Source: a virus. From it: DNA of 22,376 nucleotides. A model generated the notes under the pieces. The model made no database searches and was not told where the DNA came from. It worked only from the letters and a program-made list of their open reading frames with translations. The first letter of the stretch is position 1. Each line of letters begins with the position of its first letter. The stretch is taken from the UHGV virus genome UHGV-0378502. One strand, given 5' to 3'. Shown in pieces: positions 1 through 8,753 of this stretch. The translations under genes were made by a program, and so were the position numbers.

Positions 1-383
1 GACTGCTCTGCCGCCCTTTTTAAAGTGAATTTTGTGATGCGGTGAATGCGGCTGAGCGCACGCGGAACAGTTAAAACCAAAAACAGTGTTATGGTTGGAT
101 TCTCTGTATCCGGCGTTAATTGTTAACTGGTTAACGTCACCCCATACTTACCGCCGCGCCATTTCGCGGATTGCCACAACCGGAAGCGCACGGTCGACGA
201 AAATTTAACGACAGGCTATCTATGAACCAGCTACCTCGCCGTGCGCTTTCGCGTTATGGTCTGACTTTTCAGGGAAATATCCTTTCAGTAAACCGTCAGT
301 GCCGGATGCTCACCCGTGTCCGGCGCACGCACTCCACCTCACCCGTGGAGAACTCCTTAATCACCAACCCTCAGGAGGGTGAA

Positions 384-659
384 ATGTCGACTGAAAATGA
401 TGAAATCATTAACTCCCTGATACGCCAGATTAATAATTTTGATAAAGCATTGCAGCATGCTGCGGCGCGTAGTGATATAACTCTTTTAGCAATTTCATTT
501 CTTGCATCTGTAATGGATAAAAATGAAGTCGTACGACAGAGTCTTGTTGATTATATCGACTCGCTTCAACCAGGCACTTTCAATCATGAGAGCTTCAATC
601 ATGAGAAAGAGCATGTTAAATCTGTAATTAATTCTCTTGTTTTGAATCAAAAGAATTAA
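384..659 (+). CDS. Hypothetical small protein (91 aa) in an AT-rich accessory island
   Basis: ATG at 384 preceded by a perfect AGGAGG Shine-Dalgarno (374-379); ORF in frame with the longer track ORF 171..659, whose upstream start would be TTG without an RBS. AT-rich codon usage unlike flanking phage genes. Internal 12-nt tandem duplication ttcaatcatgag x2 (approx 580-606). No recognisable family. Confidence 0.45.
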   Translation: MSTENDEIINSLIRQINNFDKALQHAAARSDITLLAISFLASVMDKNEVVRQSLVDYIDSLQPGTFNHESFNHEKEHVKSVINSLVLNQKN

Positions 660-969
660 TGCTTTTTGTTGCAAGGTAATTTTCAAGGGGTTCTATTCGA
701 ATCCCTTTCTTTTTTATTAACAAGCCAAACCCCTTATCAATGATGTCCATTAATTCCAGAAAGTATTTTTCATGTAAATCCTGGTTATCAGAGAGCTGCT
801 TCTCTTCGTACAGCCCGATAAAGGCTCGGCGTACGTTACCGGATATATTGTCGATGGTTTCTTTTTCTACGGTACTCAGGTCAAGAGTCGCCAGTTGAGA
901 GCGAACCACATTCGATGCCATTTCCTGGAATGGTACTGGTAAATCTTTAAATTCCATCGTCAACCTCAT
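628..969 (-). CDS. Hypothetical protein (113 aa), second gene of a two-gene cassette downstream of cI
   Basis: ATG (plus 967-969) overlaps the stop of the upstream gene by 1 nt (ATGA-type coupling); alternative in-frame ATG at 955-957 with GAGG upstream. AT-rich. No recognisable family. Confidence 0.5.
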   Translation of the reverse strand: MRLTMEFKDLPVPFQEMASNVVRSQLATLDLSTVEKETIDNISGNVRRAFIGLYEEKQLSDNQDLHEKYFLELMDIIDKGFGLLIKKKGIRIEPLENYLATKSINSFDSKQEN

Positions 970-1202
970 CAGTCAGTGTTTCTGGTTAACCAGCGACGCG
1001 CGCCAGCTTCAGTTTTAAACGTTTTGCTTCTGGTATACGCCATCGCGGTAAACGTGCCGTCCTGGTTTGGAAACACGCCGTACACCAGAGATTCGTTGTT
1101 GCCAAGATCGATAGTATCCATGCTGACCTCATTTCCCCTTAACGCCGGGGTAGCGGAACAAAAACCTGCTGCATAGTTATTAAAGTTGAACCCTGCCGTC
1201 AT
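969..1202 (-). CDS. Hypothetical protein (77 aa), first gene of a two-gene cassette downstream of cI
   Basis: ATG start (plus 1200-1202), GAGG-containing leader, stop overlapping the start of the next gene. Lies about 210 bp downstream of the cI stop on the same strand. No recognisable family. Confidence 0.5.
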   Translation of the reverse strand: MTAGFNFNNYAAGFCSATPALRGNEVSMDTIDLGNNESLVYGVFPNQDGTFTAMAYTRSKTFKTEAGARRWLTRNTD

Positions 1203-1300
1203 GTTCTTACGCCTCGGGCTGGCTACTTAACCCCTGACCACTGCCTGGTAACTCGAAGTATTGCCCTGCATTCTGTAGGATGGGGTGAGGGAATGAATGA

Positions 1301-1329
1301 AGTTTAGAAAAACGAACTTTTTAGGTCAA
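1301..1329 (-). promoter_or_regulatory. Putative sigma70 promoter for the 969..1202 / 628..969 cassette
   Basis: On the minus strand: TTGACC (plus 1324-1329), 17-nt spacer, TAAACT (plus 1301-1306), about 90 nt upstream of the cassette start. Sequence-pattern prediction only. Confidence 0.35.
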
Positions 1330-1413
1330 TGTTTTTTTATCAAAACATTTTAAGCAGGCAGCTGTTAAGCCATCACCACGATGGCATACAGTTAATCAAA
1401 TAGATGAGGTTGG

Positions 1414-2052
1414 TTAAATATCTTGTTGAATTTTAAAGCATACGCCCAATATGCAAGATAGATCATCCAGCATAATTGAAGGGTAGCGAGGATTCGTGGG
1501 GACTAAAAGAATATCCGGCCCTTCTATCTCCAGTTTACGAATGACAGGTGTTGTGGTCCCTTTGGGTAAGGCAAGGACAATATTTCCTGGTTGTACGGTT
1601 CGATCGGGATCAACAAAAACTGTTGAACCATTTGGGATGGAAACTCCCCCACCAGATGTTGACATACTGTCACTCTCTAGAACAACTGCAAAGGTATTGA
1701 CCGGGATTTCTCCGACAAGCTGCACACAAGAGGTTATTGAGGAATTTTTCATATAATCACTCCAGCTTGCTGCCTGCTGAAGTGATAGTAGCGGAACCGT
1801 TTTTATCGGCGGTAAAGATAGATCAAGCGAATCACCTGTATTTAACTCTCCTCCATTAAGAAGCCAATTTTCGTTTACTTTCAATATTTTTGCCAGTGAA
1901 CTTATGTAACGCGAGGACGGCGCTCCTCCACCGTTCATCCATTGACTTACGGAGCCTTTTGATGCGCCAGTGCCATTGACAAGGTCTTTGCCTTTCAGGT
2001 TTAGCGCATGCATACGTTGGGTTATGCGTTCAGATATAGTTTGCTTGCTCAT
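1414..2052 (-). CDS. cI: Prophage repressor, cI-like (N-terminal HTH plus C-terminal LexA/S24 autopeptidase domain)
   Basis: 212-aa product with an HTH-like N-terminus and a C-terminal domain carrying the Ser (ESDSM) and Lys (VIRKL) of the S24 catalytic dyad; divergent from a cro-like gene across a 90-bp operator region; no Shine-Dalgarno before the ATG (leaderless-type, as for lambda pRM transcripts). Confidence 0.9.
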   Translation of the reverse strand: MSKQTISERITQRMHALNLKGKDLVNGTGASKGSVSQWMNGGGAPSSRYISSLAKILKVNENWLLNGGELNTGDSLDLSLPPIKTVPLLSLQQAASWSDYMKNSSITSCVQLVGEIPVNTFAVVLESDSMSTSGGGVSIPNGSTVFVDPDRTVQPGNIVLALPKGTTTPVIRKLEIEGPDILLVPTNPRYPSIMLDDLSCILGVCFKIQQDI

Positions 2053-2143
2053 GTTTTGATTTTAAAACACAGATGGTTTTGTTTCTTGACTTTCTTTGGT
2101 TTTGATTATTAAACTTTTGACGTTCAGTTTTATGGAGCGACTC
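2051..2143. promoter_or_regulatory. Divergent cI/cro operator-promoter region with three direct repeats
   Basis: Three copies of a TGGTTTTGnTT-like motif at about 2051-2062, 2073-2084 and 2097-2108 (22-24 bp spacing). Rightward -35 TTGACT (2086-2091) with a weak -10 (TATTAA/TTAAAC); leftward TAAAAT hexamer 6 nt before the cI ATG on the minus strand. Inference from sequence patterns. Confidence 0.45.
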
Positions 2144-2386
2144 ATGAAAAAATCAGAAGTATTAGGCTATTTTGGCGGAGTTGTTAAAACAGCCGCAGCT
2201 CTAGGAACGTCAAAAACCACAGTCAGCATGTGGGGGGAAGAGGTTCCGTGGAAATGGGCGTTGCTAATTCAGGCAGTCACTGCCGGGGCGCTCAAATATG
2301 AGTTACACATACCGACGGTTGTCATTCCCGGTTCTGATCATAATCCGCCTTCTAACCAAGGAGGGATTCATGAAAATCAAGCATGA
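2144..2386 (+). CDS. Cro-like HTH regulator, YdaS family-like
   Basis: Small HTH protein (MKKSEVLGYFGGVVKTAAALGTSKTTVSMWG...) divergent from cI at the Cro position. Start chosen at ATG 2144; the track ORF begins at 2096 and 2132 is another in-frame ATG. The 3' end overlaps the next gene. Confidence 0.7.
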   Translation: MKKSEVLGYFGGVVKTAAALGTSKTTVSMWGEEVPWKWALLIQAVTAGALKYELHIPTVVIPGSDHNPPSNQGGIHENQA

Positions 2387-2795
2387 ACACATCCGCATGG
2401 CGATGAATGCCTGGGCGCATCCGGACGGCGAAAAAGTACCGGCTGCGAAAATTACCAAAGCGTATTTCGAGCTGGGAATGACGTTCCCGGAACTGTATGA
2501 CGACAGCCATCCGGAAGCCCTGGCTCGCAATACCCAGAAAATTTTCCGCTGGGTAGAGAAAGACACCCCTGATGCAGTTGAAAAAATTCAGGCGTTGTTA
2601 CCAGCGATCGAAAAGGCAATGCCACCTTTGCTGGTGGCCAGAATGCGCAGCCACAGTTCAGCTTATTTTCGGGAGCTGGTGGAGACGCGGGAGCGACTGG
2701 TGAGAGACGCTGATGATTTTGTCGCAGTGGCAATCGCCGGTTTCAATCAGATGAACCGTGGTGGCCCGGCAGGAAATGCTGTGGCAGTACATTGA
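2370..2795 (+). CDS. YdaT-like / CII-like regulatory protein
   Basis: ATG at 2370 preceded by AGGAGGG (2358-2364); 141 aa beginning MKIKHEHIRMAMNAW, which I recall as characteristic of YdaT-family proteins encoded next to YdaS-type Cro in Rac-like prophages. Family assignment from memory. Confidence 0.6.
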   Translation: MKIKHEHIRMAMNAWAHPDGEKVPAAKITKAYFELGMTFPELYDDSHPEALARNTQKIFRWVEKDTPDAVEKIQALLPAIEKAMPPLLVARMRSHSSAYFRELVETRERLVRDADDFVAVAIAGFNQMNRGGPAGNAVAVH

Positions 2796-2866
2796 CTGAC
2801 AATAGCCATATCGAATCGCTTCCGGCAACTCGTGAGTAAAAAGATTCGGTATCAGAAGAGGTGAGT

Positions 2867-3937
2867 ATGGCTAACGCCTGGCTCAGATTATGGCATGACA
2901 TGCCAAATGACCCTAAGTGGCGAACAATTGCCAGGGTGTCAGGGCAGCCAATTGCAACAGTGATGGCAGTGTATATCCACCTCCTGGTGAGCGCGTCACG
3001 AAATGTCACGCGAGGTCACATTGATGTCACGACAGAAGATTTGGCAAGTGCGCTCGACGTGACAGAAGAGGTAATTGATTCAATTTTGCAGACGATGCAG
3101 GGGCGGGTACTTGATGGTGATTTAATCACTGGATGGGAAAAACGCCAGGTGCTGAAAGAGGACAACGGCAATATTTTGCAAACCGCAAAATCTCCGGCAG
3201 AGCGCAAGAGGGCGCAGCGAGAGAGGGAAAGAAAGCGGGAACAAAATGGCGATTGTCACGGCGAGTCACGAAATGTCACGCACATGTCACGACGAGTCAC
3301 GACAGATAAAGATACAGATAAAGATACAGATCAAGAAGATCAAAACACTATGGTCCATGGCGTAAAAAACGCCACGAACCAGGCAGGGGATGTTCAGACC
3401 GTCACTCCTGGCCAGCCCGCAGGCACGACACCGGAAGCCGATTCAGCGTATGCGCTGAAAGCCGATTCGGGCGCTGTGCAGCAGGTGATGACCGCAAGGC
3501 AGGAGCAATCACACCAACTTCAGCAGCCTGAAGCCGATTCCGCCATTCAGCGGGAAGCCGATCGGGTAGTCCCGGAAAACACCGGGCAGCCTGTGGGACG
3601 AGTGGATTATCCTGATGTGTTCGAACAGGTCTGGCGGGAATACCCGTTGCGTGCCGGGGCAAACCCGAAGAAATCCGCTTTCAGTGCCTGGAAAGCCAGA
3701 TTACGCGAGGGGGTGCCACCAGAGGCCATGCTGGATGGCGTGAGGCGTTACGCAAGATACCTTGCGGCTACCGGGAAAACGGGAACGGAATTTGTTCAGC
3801 GAGCGACGACGTTTTTTGGACCGGACCGGAATTTTGAAAACCCCTGGCTGCTCCCGGTAAGCGGCACGAACAACCAGCGTTGTGTGAATCATATTTCTGA
3901 ACCGGATAACGAAATTCCGCCGGGCTTCAGGGGGTAA
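2867..3937 (+). CDS. Phage replication initiator (replisome-organizer / O-like protein) containing internal iterons
   Basis: ATG 2867 with GAGG upstream. The N-terminus (MANAWLRLWHDMPNDPKWRTIAR...) resembles the phage replisome-organizer N-terminal domain; an acidic low-complexity linker (DKDTDKDTDQEDQ) separates it from a C-terminal domain; position is immediately downstream of the cro/cII-like genes. Family assignment from memory. Confidence 0.75.
   Translation: MANAWLRLWHDMPNDPKWRTIARVSGQPIATVMAVYIHLLVSASRNVTRGHIDVTTEDLASALDVTEEVIDSILQTMQGRVLDGDLITGWEKRQVLKEDNGNILQTAKSPAERKRAQRERERKREQNGDCHGESRNVTHMSRRVTTDKDTDKDTDQEDQNTMVHGVKNATNQAGDVQTVTPGQPAGTTPEADSAYALKADSGAVQQVMTARQEQSHQLQQPEADSAIQREADRVVPENTGQPVGRVDYPDVFEQVWREYPLRAGANPKKSAFSAWKARLREGVPPEAMLDGVRRYARYLAATGKTGTEFVQRATTFFGPDRNFENPWLLPVSGTNNQRCVNHISEPDNEIPPGFRG
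2995..3031 (+). repeat. Iteron cluster 1 inside the initiator gene (4 x GTCACG at about 10-bp phasing)
   Basis: GTCACG/GTCACA at 2995, 3005, 3015 and 3026 (spacing 10, 10, 11), with an inverted CGTGAC copy near 3058. Confidence 0.7.
3255..3345 (+). repeat. Iteron cluster 2 (5 x GTCACG at helical phasing) plus adjacent AT-rich tandem repeat; candidate origin of replication
   Basis: GTCACG at 3255, 3265, 3275, 3286 and 3296 (spacing 10, 10, 11, 10), followed by gataaagataca x2 and an A-rich stretch (3302-3345). The arrangement is analogous to ori-lambda lying inside gene O. Confidence 0.65.
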
Positions 3938-3977
3938 GTGTTAATTTCTGGTCATGAGGTAATTTTCAGGAGGGCTT

Positions 3978-4400
3978 GTGGCAAAAGTTTTTACACAAGA
4001 AGAGCGGGAAAAAATTAAAGGACAGGTTCTTGAACTCGTACGCCAGAGTGGGCGCGAGACGTTACGACAACTGGAAGCTAAAACTGGGGCAACAAGATAT
4101 CTGATGAGCGTTCTGGCCAGAGAGCTGGTTGCCAGTGGCGATGTATACAATTCTGGCTACGGGTTATTCCCGTCTGAACAGGCTCGTAAAGACTGGCAAA
4201 ATGCCCGCAAAAAATTATCGAGGGCAAAGCTGAAGAAACCGGTTGTGGTTGATCCGGACCTTATCTGGTCGTTACCTGACGGAGAAATACGTCGCTACGA
4301 CAGTCGCCTAAACATAATCTGTCGCGAGTGCCGGAAGAGTGAAGCTATGCAGCGTGTACTGGCTTTCTATCAGGGTAATTTTCAGGAGGCGGTACTGTGA
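3978..4400 (+). CDS. Hypothetical protein (140 aa)
   Basis: GTG start at 3978 preceded by AGGAGGG (3967-3973); ORF follows the initiator gene; no recognisable family. Confidence 0.55.
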   Translation: MAKVFTQEEREKIKGQVLELVRQSGRETLRQLEAKTGATRYLMSVLARELVASGDVYNSGYGLFPSEQARKDWQNARKKLSRAKLKKPVVVDPDLIWSLPDGEIRRYDSRLNIICRECRKSEAMQRVLAFYQGNFQEAVL

Positions 4401-4457
4401 GTGAAATTAGCTATCAGGCTTCAATTACCGCTGGCATTCGCATCAAAGGAGAGGAGC

Positions 4458-4814
4458 ATGGAAATAAAACCAGAGGATGAGTTAAGCAATATCGTTTTAT
4501 TTCCGGTAAAAGAGGATGACCCTCGTAATCAGGTTAATTTTCTTTATGAGCCATCGGAAAGACCATATTGTCATCACGCCTCTGTCCGGGTTGACGAAAA
4601 AGAGCGTCAGGTCCGCTGTAAAATCTGCGGTGCAGTTGTGGAGCCATTTGACTGGATGCTCTCTGTGGCGAAAAGAGAAACCAGACTGGCAGATGATGTA
4701 AGGCTCTTGCGTCAGGAGGAGCGGGAAAGGCGAAAAAATATAGAAAAGCTAATTCAGATTGAGCGTAACGCGAAAGCGCGGATACGCAGGGCGACAAAAT
4801 CCAGAACTGAATAA
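4458..4814 (+). CDS. Hypothetical protein with Cys/His cluster (possible zinc ribbon), 118 aa
   Basis: ATG 4458 preceded by AAGGAGAGGAG; contains CHH ... CKIC spacing suggestive of a zinc-binding motif; basic coiled C-terminus. The track ORF begins at GTG 4401. Confidence 0.55.
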   Translation: MEIKPEDELSNIVLFPVKEDDPRNQVNFLYEPSERPYCHHASVRVDEKERQVRCKICGAVVEPFDWMLSVAKRETRLADDVRLLRQEERERRKNIEKLIQIERNAKARIRRATKSRTE

Positions 4815-4878
4815 TTAAATTTAGCTCTGTTAAAAATTTAATCCTTAACCGGAGGGATTTCTGCACCCTCAGAACATC

Positions 4879-4910
4879 AGGAGGCCGCCCGAAAGGGCGG
4901 TAGTTAAATG
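4879..4910 (+). promoter_or_regulatory. Hairpin-split ribosome binding site (SD - stem-loop - AUG)
   Basis: AGGAGG at 4879-4884, then a perfect 6-bp stem with GAAA tetraloop (CCGCCC gaaa GGGCGG, 4885-4900), then ATG at 4908. Linear SD-AUG spacing is 23 nt; folding the hairpin would bring it to about 7 nt. Confidence 0.35.
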
Positions 4911-5090
4911 CGAAAGTTTAAAATAATTATTGAAACGGGAATAGCCGGTGGAGATTTCGAGGATGAATTCGAAGTGGATGATGATGCGATGCCTGATGAA
5001 ATACATGACGAAGAAAAAGATATTTTCTTTAACTACTGCAATTACTCATATCACGAAATAAAAGACGAAGAGGAAGAACAAAATGGCTGA
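4908..5090 (+). CDS. Small acidic protein (60 aa)
   Basis: ATG 4908; highly acidic product (DFEDEFEVDDDAMPDEIHDEE...); stop overlaps the next ATG (ATGGCTGA). Confidence 0.45.
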   Translation: MRKFKIIIETGIAGGDFEDEFEVDDDAMPDEIHDEEKDIFFNYCNYSYHEIKDEEEEQNG

Positions 5091-8210: not shown

Positions 8211-8753
8211 ATGATATACCCGGAAATTACAGGCAAAAGCGGCGAGCATTTACGTCTAAAAACGCTGGAAGCCGTCTGGATCCAGGGGAAATTACGGATG
8301 TGGGGGCGTTGGTCGTATATAGGTGGTGGCAAACCAGGAAATATGTTCAATCAGTTGCTGGCATCCAAAAAACTGACAAAAACCGCAATCAATGAAGCCC
8401 TGCGTAGAATCAGGGAGTCAGGGATTGATAAACCAGAGCTGGAAGCATTCTTGCGAGAGATGATCGCTGGCAGACAGAAGAGCTGGTTGTCTCACTGTAC
8501 TGATGCAGAGGCGTTACGCATTGATGGGGTGATAAGTAAAGCGCTTGCACGTTATCCTGGATTGATTGATATCCTGCGGCAAAGGTACGAAGGGCGGGGG
8601 ATGAGTAAACGCAAAATGGCTGAATTGTTGAATGAGGTGCACCCGGAATGGTGTTTTAGTACATGCGAAAAGCGAATTGCTAATTGGTTGGCTGTTGCTG
8701 AATATGCGCTATACATCCCTATGCGAGAATCGTTTGCTCAAAAAATGTCTTGA
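8211..8753 (+). CDS. Putative late-gene antiterminator (Q-like)
   Basis: Positional: follows rusA and precedes a promoter-like element plus a strong intrinsic terminator and the late genes. Contains an LRMWGRWSY segment reminiscent of the WG-W motif I recall in 21-type Q proteins. Start could be GTG 8199 (overlapping the rusA stop) or ATG 8211. Confidence 0.5.
   Translation: MIYPEITGKSGEHLRLKTLEAVWIQGKLRMWGRWSYIGGGKPGNMFNQLLASKKLTKTAINEALRRIRESGIDKPELEAFLREMIAGRQKSWLSHCTDAEALRIDGVISKALARYPGLIDILRQRYEGRGMSKRKMAELLNEVHPEWCFSTCEKRIANWLAVAEYALYIPMRESFAQKMS

Follow-up and report, generated by a model that had tools for sequence, protein, structure and literature searches.

This analysis concerns a small gene, here designated S, near the left end of the virus genome UHGV-0378502, a stretch of 22,376 nucleotides referred to below as the window. 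S is encoded on the plus strand and meets, tail to tail, a minus-strand gene (the facing gene, or MEFKDL gene after the first residues of its product) which it overlaps at the 3' end. The region corresponds to the immunity and early-left section of a lambdoid prophage of the Qin/DicB type, and positions 142-4975 of the window were found to be 100% identical, with 0 mismatches in 4834 nt, to Escherichia coli ETEC (enterotoxigenic E. coli) H10407 (NC_017633). The features of the locus, together with genes found in the equivalent position of related loci, are collected in Table 1.

Coding capacity, conservation and predicted structure of S

The original prediction described the open reading frame (ORF) at 384-659 as preceded by a perfect AGGAGG ribosome binding site (RBS), and both this frame and the facing gene as AT-rich. 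Both observations were confirmed. The Shine-Dalgarno (SD) sequence is present 5 nt from the ATG, and S and the facing gene have G+C contents of 0.348 and 0.382, compared with 0.519 across the whole window; all homologues of S fall in the range 0.32-0.39. A GGAG-type SD followed by ATG is kept in 9 of the 9 lineages examined. The NCBI Prokaryotic Genome Annotation Pipeline (PGAP) places the start at ATG 222 in a 145-residue model. This start was rejected, as the in-frame extension is interrupted in the leader of one related gene type (type B, Table 1) and is elsewhere not conserved. PGAP start modelling for S is inconsistent, and the public annotation is corrected here to a true start at 384.

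Among copies of the window type (type A) there are two main clades, MSTEND... and MGFDVN..., which share a nucleotide identity of 83.5%. The S frame is the sole frame of the six that is stop-free in both of these clades, and its ratio of nonsynonymous to synonymous substitution rates (dN/dS) of 0.31 is the lowest of the six, decreasing to 0.23 when the first five codons are omitted. All insertions and deletions seen in S are in frame, comprising a 5-residue repeat (1-3 copies), one 1-residue deletion and one 9-residue deletion. The repeat corresponds to a 15-nt tandem duplication at window positions 582-611 (CAATCATGAGAGCTT / CAATCATGAGAAAGA), read in the frame FNHES-FNHEK, and variation in the number of FNHES units among alleles (1-3) yields protein versions of 86, 91 and 96 residues. 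These comparisons indicate that S is a real gene under purifying selection. The dN/dS of the facing gene is likewise low (0.28), so that neither of the two overlapping frames has the appearance of a spurious one, the outcome named as fatal to the original prediction.

The type A product aligned with the 92-residue type B product at 28% identity over the full length (86 residues; BLASTP E = 5e-6). The window protein itself gave a weak match to the PHROG 18692 profile (E = 0.018, residues 9-88 against profile positions 6-89 of 92), whereas 7 of 10 members of the S family, including type B, P0143, P0144 and P0159, matched that profile with values down to 5e-62. A joint profile of types A and B recovers both types and, among 1.84 billion representatives searched, approximately 10 clusters at 50% identity, which come from E. 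coli, Salmonella and metagenomes. S resembles PHROG 18692 in its equal length, its three-helix layout and the motifs R-x-D...L..(L/I)S and E-K-x-H; it differs in that the profile match of type A on its own is marginal and the link rests on homology to type B. The pairwise and profile comparisons suggest that the S of the window is a divergent branch of PHROG 18692. The family is already catalogued in PHROGs, as of unknown function, and every database name for its members is "hypothetical protein".

The AlphaFold2 model of S is a three-helix bundle with a predicted local distance difference test score (pLDDT) of 74 and helices at residues 2-43, 48-60 and 68-90. The protein is acidic (isoelectric point 5.4), with a negative grand average of hydropathy (GRAVY) and a maximal Kyte-Doolittle 19-residue mean of 1.43, and it has no transmembrane segment; it is predicted to be a soluble three-helix bundle. 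The homology part of the search suggested for the 91-residue protein yielded the PHROG 18692 relatives described above; the structural part was uninformative, with generic or designed-protein matches only in the fold search and nothing below E = 0.28 in a profile search of the PDB sequences. Comparison of S and its partner with Pfam, NCBIfam and PADLOC returned nothing or chance-level matches. In PADLOC-DB 2.0 the only match of S was to BrxA at chance level (E = 0.014, 12.8 bits), with zero matches for the partner and for types B, C and D. Membership in the IraP anti-adaptor family (PF10796) was considered and rejected, as 1 of the 10 S-family members matched (E = 0.039) and the window protein did not. 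The suggestion that S is a regulator finds no support in these results, since no helix-turn-helix (HTH) or other DNA-binding family was matched in Pfam or NCBIfam and the model is a plain three-helix bundle. By these sequence comparisons S is not a known defence protein and not a recognisable regulator. With type B as the query, tblastn found no match among 50,697 phage records, and a related-locus search for the S family in GTDB representatives and IMG/VR gave no relatives. No papers on the S family came up in the literature under its protein accession, locus tag or PHROG number, and a literature search on defence hotspots retrieved nothing specific to the S locus.

Table 1. Features of the S locus in the window and alternative genes in the equivalent position of related loci (positions preceded by an L number).
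Feature	Position	Strand	Details
Inverted DicF 3' end and DicF-dicB spacer	1-141		last ~16 nt of DicF plus T-run; reverse complement of H10407 L002 3492-3632
Leader, ~240 nt	142-372		ydfC-dicF intergenic region of Qin-type prophages; with or without cargo
Leader hairpin 1	301-324	+	GCCGGAUGC / GUGUCCGGC, including conserved U-G and G-U pairs
Leader hairpin 2	332-350	+	CUCCAC / GUGGAG
Shine-Dalgarno AGGAGG	373-378	+	5-nt spacer to ATG
Gene S (cargo type A)	384-659	+	91 aa; ATG 384-386, stop TAA 657-659, 91 codons; probable PHROG 18692 branch; 198/5426 complete E. coli genomes; facing gene 109 or 106 aa, overlap 32 or 23 bp
Tail-to-tail ORF overlap, 32 bp	628-659		S stop 657-659, facing stop 630-628
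Facing gene (MEFKDL...)	628-957 (ORF 628-969)	-	109 aa; PHROG 6937; stop 630-628; dN/dS 0.28
Predicted intrinsic terminator of S	685-717	+	9-bp G+C-rich hairpin 685-707 plus TCTTTTTTAT
ydfA-like DUF1391 gene	969-1121	-	Pfam PF07151 (E = 4.7e-27) and PGAP; directly upstream of facing gene
cI/LexA-like repressor (HTH plus S24 peptidase)	1414-2052	-	immunity-region marker; domain match
Cargo type B	L014 3048-3326		92 aa; PHROG 18692, homologous to A; 127 complete E. coli genomes; facing gene 133 aa, overlap 41 bp
Cargo type C	L006 3365-3586	-	73 aa; PHROG 7249; 88 complete E. coli genomes; facing gene 124 aa, overlap 11 bp
Cargo type D	L143 2793-3095	-	100 aa; PHROG 8894; variant leader, equivalent position; facing gene 122 aa, overlap 77 bp

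The leader and the slot downstream of it

The region immediately upstream of S was found in 4176 of the 5426 complete E. coli genomes, at 8601 places and in up to 8 copies per genome. Approximately 95% of these leader copies carry no cargo gene. In the Qin prophage of E. coli K-12 (L137 2043-2382) the leader ends just before the RBS and is followed by ydfC. Phage 813R8 also has the flanks with no S gene, and Megablast of the left end of the window against phages returned the flanks only. A search of IMG/VR for ORFs downstream of the leader, with AACCCTCAGGAGGRTGAAATG as the probe, revealed three alternative families (A, B and C). When aligned, the A, B and C loci are identical through the ATG and unrelated beyond it, and A and C become similar again at approximately the stop codon; homology of type C to types A and B was tested and rejected. 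PHROGs 18692, 7249 and 8894, to which the cargo types belong, are all annotated as of unknown function. All four cargo types are convergent with a variant of the MEFKDL gene, which they overlap by 11-77 bp. Since the leader is usually empty and is followed by alternative families where it is not, S is best regarded as one member of a set of swappable cargo genes that use a conserved position. The comparisons indicate that it occupies a recurrent slot between the last early gene and DicF, in which it is oriented backwards.

Two hairpins precede the SD in all cargo contexts. For hairpin 1, 87.7% of the cells in the alignment are paired and 2 pairs are changed on both sides; its wobble pairs fit the plus strand and would be mismatches on the minus strand. 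For hairpin 2, 97.7% are paired and 3 of the 6 pairs are changed on both sides, and in the type D locus its position holds a hairpin of entirely different sequence. Across nine sequences and both hairpins, 89% of cells are paired with five pairs changed on both sides, a covariation score reached by no shuffle, and controls slid along the alignment pair at 31-43%. As the nine sequences are few and related, the covariation is taken as moderate evidence for the structures. Folding of the whole leader gave z = -4.55 for the plus strand and z = -1.67 for the minus strand, part of the difference being due to base composition. A distal stem (184-193/239-248) also covaries, with GG/CC replaced by TA/TA in L133, a locus with P2-like early genes.

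The 190-nt species of DicF is produced by RNase III cleavage (PMC10448788). Coordinate arithmetic from that report places the cleavage site of the precursor at approximately window position 186, inside the leader. Since this is within the distal stem region, the distal part of the leader may serve processing of DicF on the minus strand. No Rfam family was found for the leader in window positions 1-3000 and eight related loci; the Rfam scan of the window and these loci gave only DicF, two sub-threshold matches (STnc100 and Hrs1) and one chance match to a long non-coding RNA (ZEB2_AS1_2). Two of the weaker matches concern DicF neighbourhoods. A DicF-like small RNA adjoins the leader in a Salmonella Rac-like prophage (L134 3734-3782, minus strand; 36 bits against the Rfam threshold of 48), and the STnc100 match lies in the E. 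coli DicF-dicB spacer (L002 3465-3605, minus strand; 39.6 bits against a threshold of 47).

The facing gene, the overlap and predicted signals for transcription

The facing gene more likely starts at the MEFKDL ATG (955-957), where a GAGG RBS is present and where PGAP also places the start. The N-terminal ~55 residues of the product (MEFKDL...SGNVRRAFIGLYEEK) are nearly invariant and the C-terminus is variable, with four or more distinct C-terminal halves attached to this N-terminal part (PHROGs 6937, 1363, 2151 and 9419). The protein is acidic with a negative GRAVY and a maximal Kyte-Doolittle 19-residue mean of 0.65, and has no transmembrane segment. The AlphaFold2 model is helical, with pLDDT below 50 for residues 90-109. 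In Salmonella the partner of the S homologue is a 71-residue protein that corresponds to the C-terminal half alone of the 133-residue E. coli partner of type B.

The 32-bp overlap was predicted correctly and exactly. Between the two type A clades it is 96.9% identical, and the rest of S differs by 16.5%; the high identity is as expected from dual coding. An intrinsic terminator for S is predicted to begin 26 nt past the S stop, inside the facing gene at the codons for KKKGIRIEPL. L133, L140, L141, L142 and the type C locus have an equivalent hairpin and T-run in this position. The antisense of the T-run and GGGG...CCCC hairpin encodes the motif K-(K/M)-K-G-x4-P-L found in the tails of the partners, as KKKGIRIEPL in the 109-residue protein of the window and as MKMKGAQFDPL in the 214-residue P2-like early protein of L133 (~548-580). 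The 140-residue partner in L142, the N-terminus of which is common to the L133 protein, has the related VKMKGPQL (~389-412). The window partner is otherwise unrelated to these two proteins, and the results indicate that the peptide is imposed by the terminator on the opposite strand. A candidate "conserved partner C-terminal module" of 15 residues, seen between L133 and Salmonella, was rejected as the antisense image of the conserved C-terminus of S.

Homologues of S are also found with no overlapping partner, beside cI in two lambdoid contigs and beside an integrase in two contigs with a common arrangement, and elsewhere S is convergent with unrelated P2-like early genes. The MEFKDL family was matched in 1455 records compared with 199 containing S, and well over a thousand genomes have the family and no S. 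Since such homologues exist and the family is far commoner than S, the two genes are probably not an obligate unit. The proposal that they form one functional unit is further weakened by the occurrence of unrelated genes in the slot and by the part of the partner encoded across the overlap and the terminator, a low-confidence tail that has the look of read-in sequence. The antisense geometry noted at the outset is real and larger than had been stated. In H10407 the minus-strand operon runs on past the MEFKDL gene to DicF (Rfam, 76.7 bits) and then dicB, and in the H10407/Qin arrangement the early transcript must traverse the entire plus-strand S and leader before it reaches DicF and dicB (PMC10448788). 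A Cro/DicC-like gene and a YdaT-like gene lie to the right of the repressor. PGAP annotates the H10407 repressor as a 112-residue C-terminal half only, and the intact 212-residue ORF is identical in H10407.

The left end of the window departs from this arrangement. Positions 1-141 are an exact reverse complement of the DicF 3' end and DicF-dicB spacer of H10407, with sequence collinear to H10407 from 142, and the junction 141/142 was seen neither in the 5426 complete E. coli genomes nor in IMG/VR or the GTDB representatives. Either DicF has been flipped by a real inversion of ~271 bp, or the junction is an artefact of assembly or construction. A promoter-like element upstream of S (TTGTTA-17-CATACT, ~120-148) had been proposed; it has 8 of 12 matches, below the scan threshold and at chance level, and it straddles the junction seen nowhere else, with its -35 half within the inverted piece. 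The GTTAAC repeat noted with it also lies inside the inverted piece; in the normal arrangement it is not adjacent to the leader but beyond DicF, in the DicF-dicB spacer ~480-500 nt upstream of the ATG and in the opposite orientation. By comparison with H10407, both the promoter and the repeat are artefacts of the unusual inverted segment. The scan revealed no plus-strand site with at least 9 of 12 matches upstream of 384, and the total count was at the level of shuffled sequence. Of the candidates, the best conserved is a weak one, TTTTCA-17-TAAACT, whose end is 89 nt from the ATG and which would start a transcript at the first base of hairpin 1; at the equivalent position L133 has an extended -10 element, TGtTATTAT. 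As a separate observation, the 141-nt E. coli DicF-dicB spacer is present at 97.9% identity near the end of the record of the jumbo Aeromonas phage AP1 (MT713136.1, 249953-250093), which suggests contamination or a chimeric assembly.

Interpretation and comparison with known systems

The explanation considered probable, with moderate confidence, is that S is a real small helical accessory gene of the moron type, lying in antisense orientation within the early-left operon of a lambdoid prophage of the Qin/DicB type, and that the overlap reflects tight packing. S would be transcribed independently and would terminate within the facing gene, ~50-60 nt downstream of its own stop. The overlap would be a by-product of this compact embedding, in which the facing ORF continues across the S terminator and 3' end, read in antisense, to the first stop; the facing ORF reads into the 3' end of S and the facing protein would therefore carry an unstructured tail. 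To arrive at DicF and dicB, the early-left transcript would have to run antisense across all of S, and S would therefore be expected to be on when the operon is repressed, as in lysogeny, and off when it is derepressed. Shutdown on derepression could proceed by convergent transcription and the formation of RNase III-sensitive duplexes, such that transcriptional interference and duplex cleavage would render the S and early-left programmes mutually exclusive, as is known for OOP and cII of lambda. Many prophage accessory proteins modulate the host or exclude other phages by protein binding, and the S protein would most likely act by binding another protein. Several results weigh against this explanation. 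No convincing sigma-70 promoter was found upstream of S in the window, and the window copy of the best candidate reads TAAACC, losing the key final T. The type B and Salmonella loci have weak terminator candidates only. Finally, tail-to-tail overlap recurs with several different partners, which may mean that the overlap is selected and not incidental.

This recurrence keeps alive, as an unlikely alternative, the possibility that S and the MEFKDL gene are one functional unit, either an antagonist or toxin-antitoxin-like pair or a regulator and its target, in which the 3' overlap provides antisense coupling. The overlap recurs for all four E. coli cargo types, in Salmonella and in P2-like prophages; a change of cargo type goes with a change in the C-terminus of the facing gene, and the overlap is the best-conserved part of S. 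However, the partners are mostly unrelated (the MEFKDL family, the 71-residue Salmonella protein and the P2-like pair of 140 and 214 residues), the similarity of their tails is accounted for by translation of the S terminator and 3' end from the opposite strand, and the tail in the window partner is predicted to be disordered. The homologues lacking an overlapping partner and the far greater abundance of the partner family also speak against a unit, and for both proteins the searches gave no match to a known family of toxins, antitoxins or defence proteins.

It is similarly doubtful that the main role lies at the RNA level, with a transcript of S, or of the leader alone, acting as a cis-antisense to the early-left RNA that limits leaky read-through into the toxic DicF and DicB through transcriptional interference and cleavage by RNase III, and the protein being secondary. 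Such a role would fit the placement of S and its leader, which in the normal arrangement are wholly antisense to the DicF/DicB transcript (PMC10448788), the stronger fold of the leader on the plus strand, the conserved wobble pairs that suit that strand and the RNase III site, which coordinate arithmetic from the published 190-nt species places inside the leader (PMC10448788). The cleavage site is nevertheless explicable by the intramolecular stem 184-193/239-248. Selection is seen at the level of the protein, with the family conserved down to 26-31% identity; homologues of S occur in loci with no detectable DicF, most leader copies have no cargo, and a promoter for the plus-strand transcript was not found. 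Highly improbable, and contradicted by the comparative sequence data, is the notion that the frame at 384-659 is spuriously open in AT-rich DNA and conserved through the minus-strand transcript alone, for which the zero Pfam matches, the weak PHROG match of the window protein, the negative promoter scan and the inconsistent PGAP starts could be cited, and against which stand the sole open frame with the lowest dN/dS of six in two diverged clades, the in-frame indels, and full-length homologues from other genera at 26-31% identity, every one of which has an SD and ATG of its own.

A speculative extension, to which we assign a low probability, would regard the conserved leader, in which the RBS-ATG, an SD-sequestering helix and two covarying hairpins are combined, as a dedicated expression platform for swappable antisense cargo (PHROGs 18692, 7249 and 8894). 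The platform would be inversely coupled to the lytic and DicF/DicB programmes by convergent transcription and RNase III, and the cargo would comprise superinfection-exclusion or host-modulation factors expressed in lysogeny.

Most E. coli genomes contain prophage remnants of the DicF/DicB type, the early-left operon of which encodes toxic cell-division inhibitors. As a recurrent slot for small backward accessory genes, the stretch from the last early gene to DicF adds to the map of prophage accessory hotspots. It provides three or four compact candidates (73-100 residues) for lysogenic conversion, phage exclusion or control of DicF/DicB, and the conserved structured leader is a candidate regulatory RNA not in Rfam. 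The practical value of the S locus is that of a lead.

Comparison with known systems places these features in context. The type I toxin-antitoxin (TA) loci txpA/RatA and bsrG/SR4 of Bacillus prophages are convergent and overlap at the 3' ends; their toxins are hydrophobic peptides of <60 residues and their antitoxins are non-coding RNAs. The S locus is likewise prophage-borne, convergent and 3'-overlapping, but S (91 residues) and its partner (109 residues) are hydrophilic, acidic and helical with no transmembrane segment. A type I system was rejected on the grounds that there is no hydrophobic or membrane toxin peptide and that both strands encode proteins under purifying selection. A type II system was also rejected, as the genes are convergent and not co-directional and no match to a toxin or antitoxin fold was obtained in Pfam, NCBIfam or PADLOC. 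In phage lambda, the transcripts of OOP RNA and cII are convergent, overlap at the 3' ends and are cleaved by RNase III, OOP being a non-coding RNA of 77 nt whose promoter is defined and whose effect has been demonstrated. The S locus resembles this pair in having convergent units that overlap at their 3' ends in a lambdoid regulatory region, in which sense-antisense pairing and RNase III cleavage are plausible; it differs in that S and its partner are both protein-coding.

The dicBF operon of the cryptic prophage Qin has the order ydfA-ydfB-ydfC-dicF-dicB (PMC10448788, PMC5069750). The H10407 copy has an equal gene order, with the repressor and the ydfA-like DUF1391 gene followed by DicF and dicB, and the leader at 142-372 corresponds to the ydfC-dicF intergenic region of Qin. 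In contrast, K-12 Qin has no RBS or gene after the leader, whereas here the MEFKDL gene replaces ydfB/ydfC, S is inserted in antisense and the DicF end is inverted in the window. Phage morons, as defined by Hendrix and colleagues, are accessory genes of lambdoid prophages, examples being bor and lom of lambda and gp15 of HK97. S resembles them in being present or absent between near-identical prophages (the leader in 4176 genomes, type A in 198), in its G+C content (0.35 compared with 0.52), and in having its own translation signals, a predicted terminator and conserved flanks that would allow swapping. It differs in lying antisense inside an early lytic operon and not between late genes, in having its terminator and 3' end embedded in a neighbouring coding region, and in that a convincing promoter was not found. 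Overall, the composition, the pattern of presence and absence and the predicted terminator suggest that the phage moron is the closest kind to which S can be assigned.

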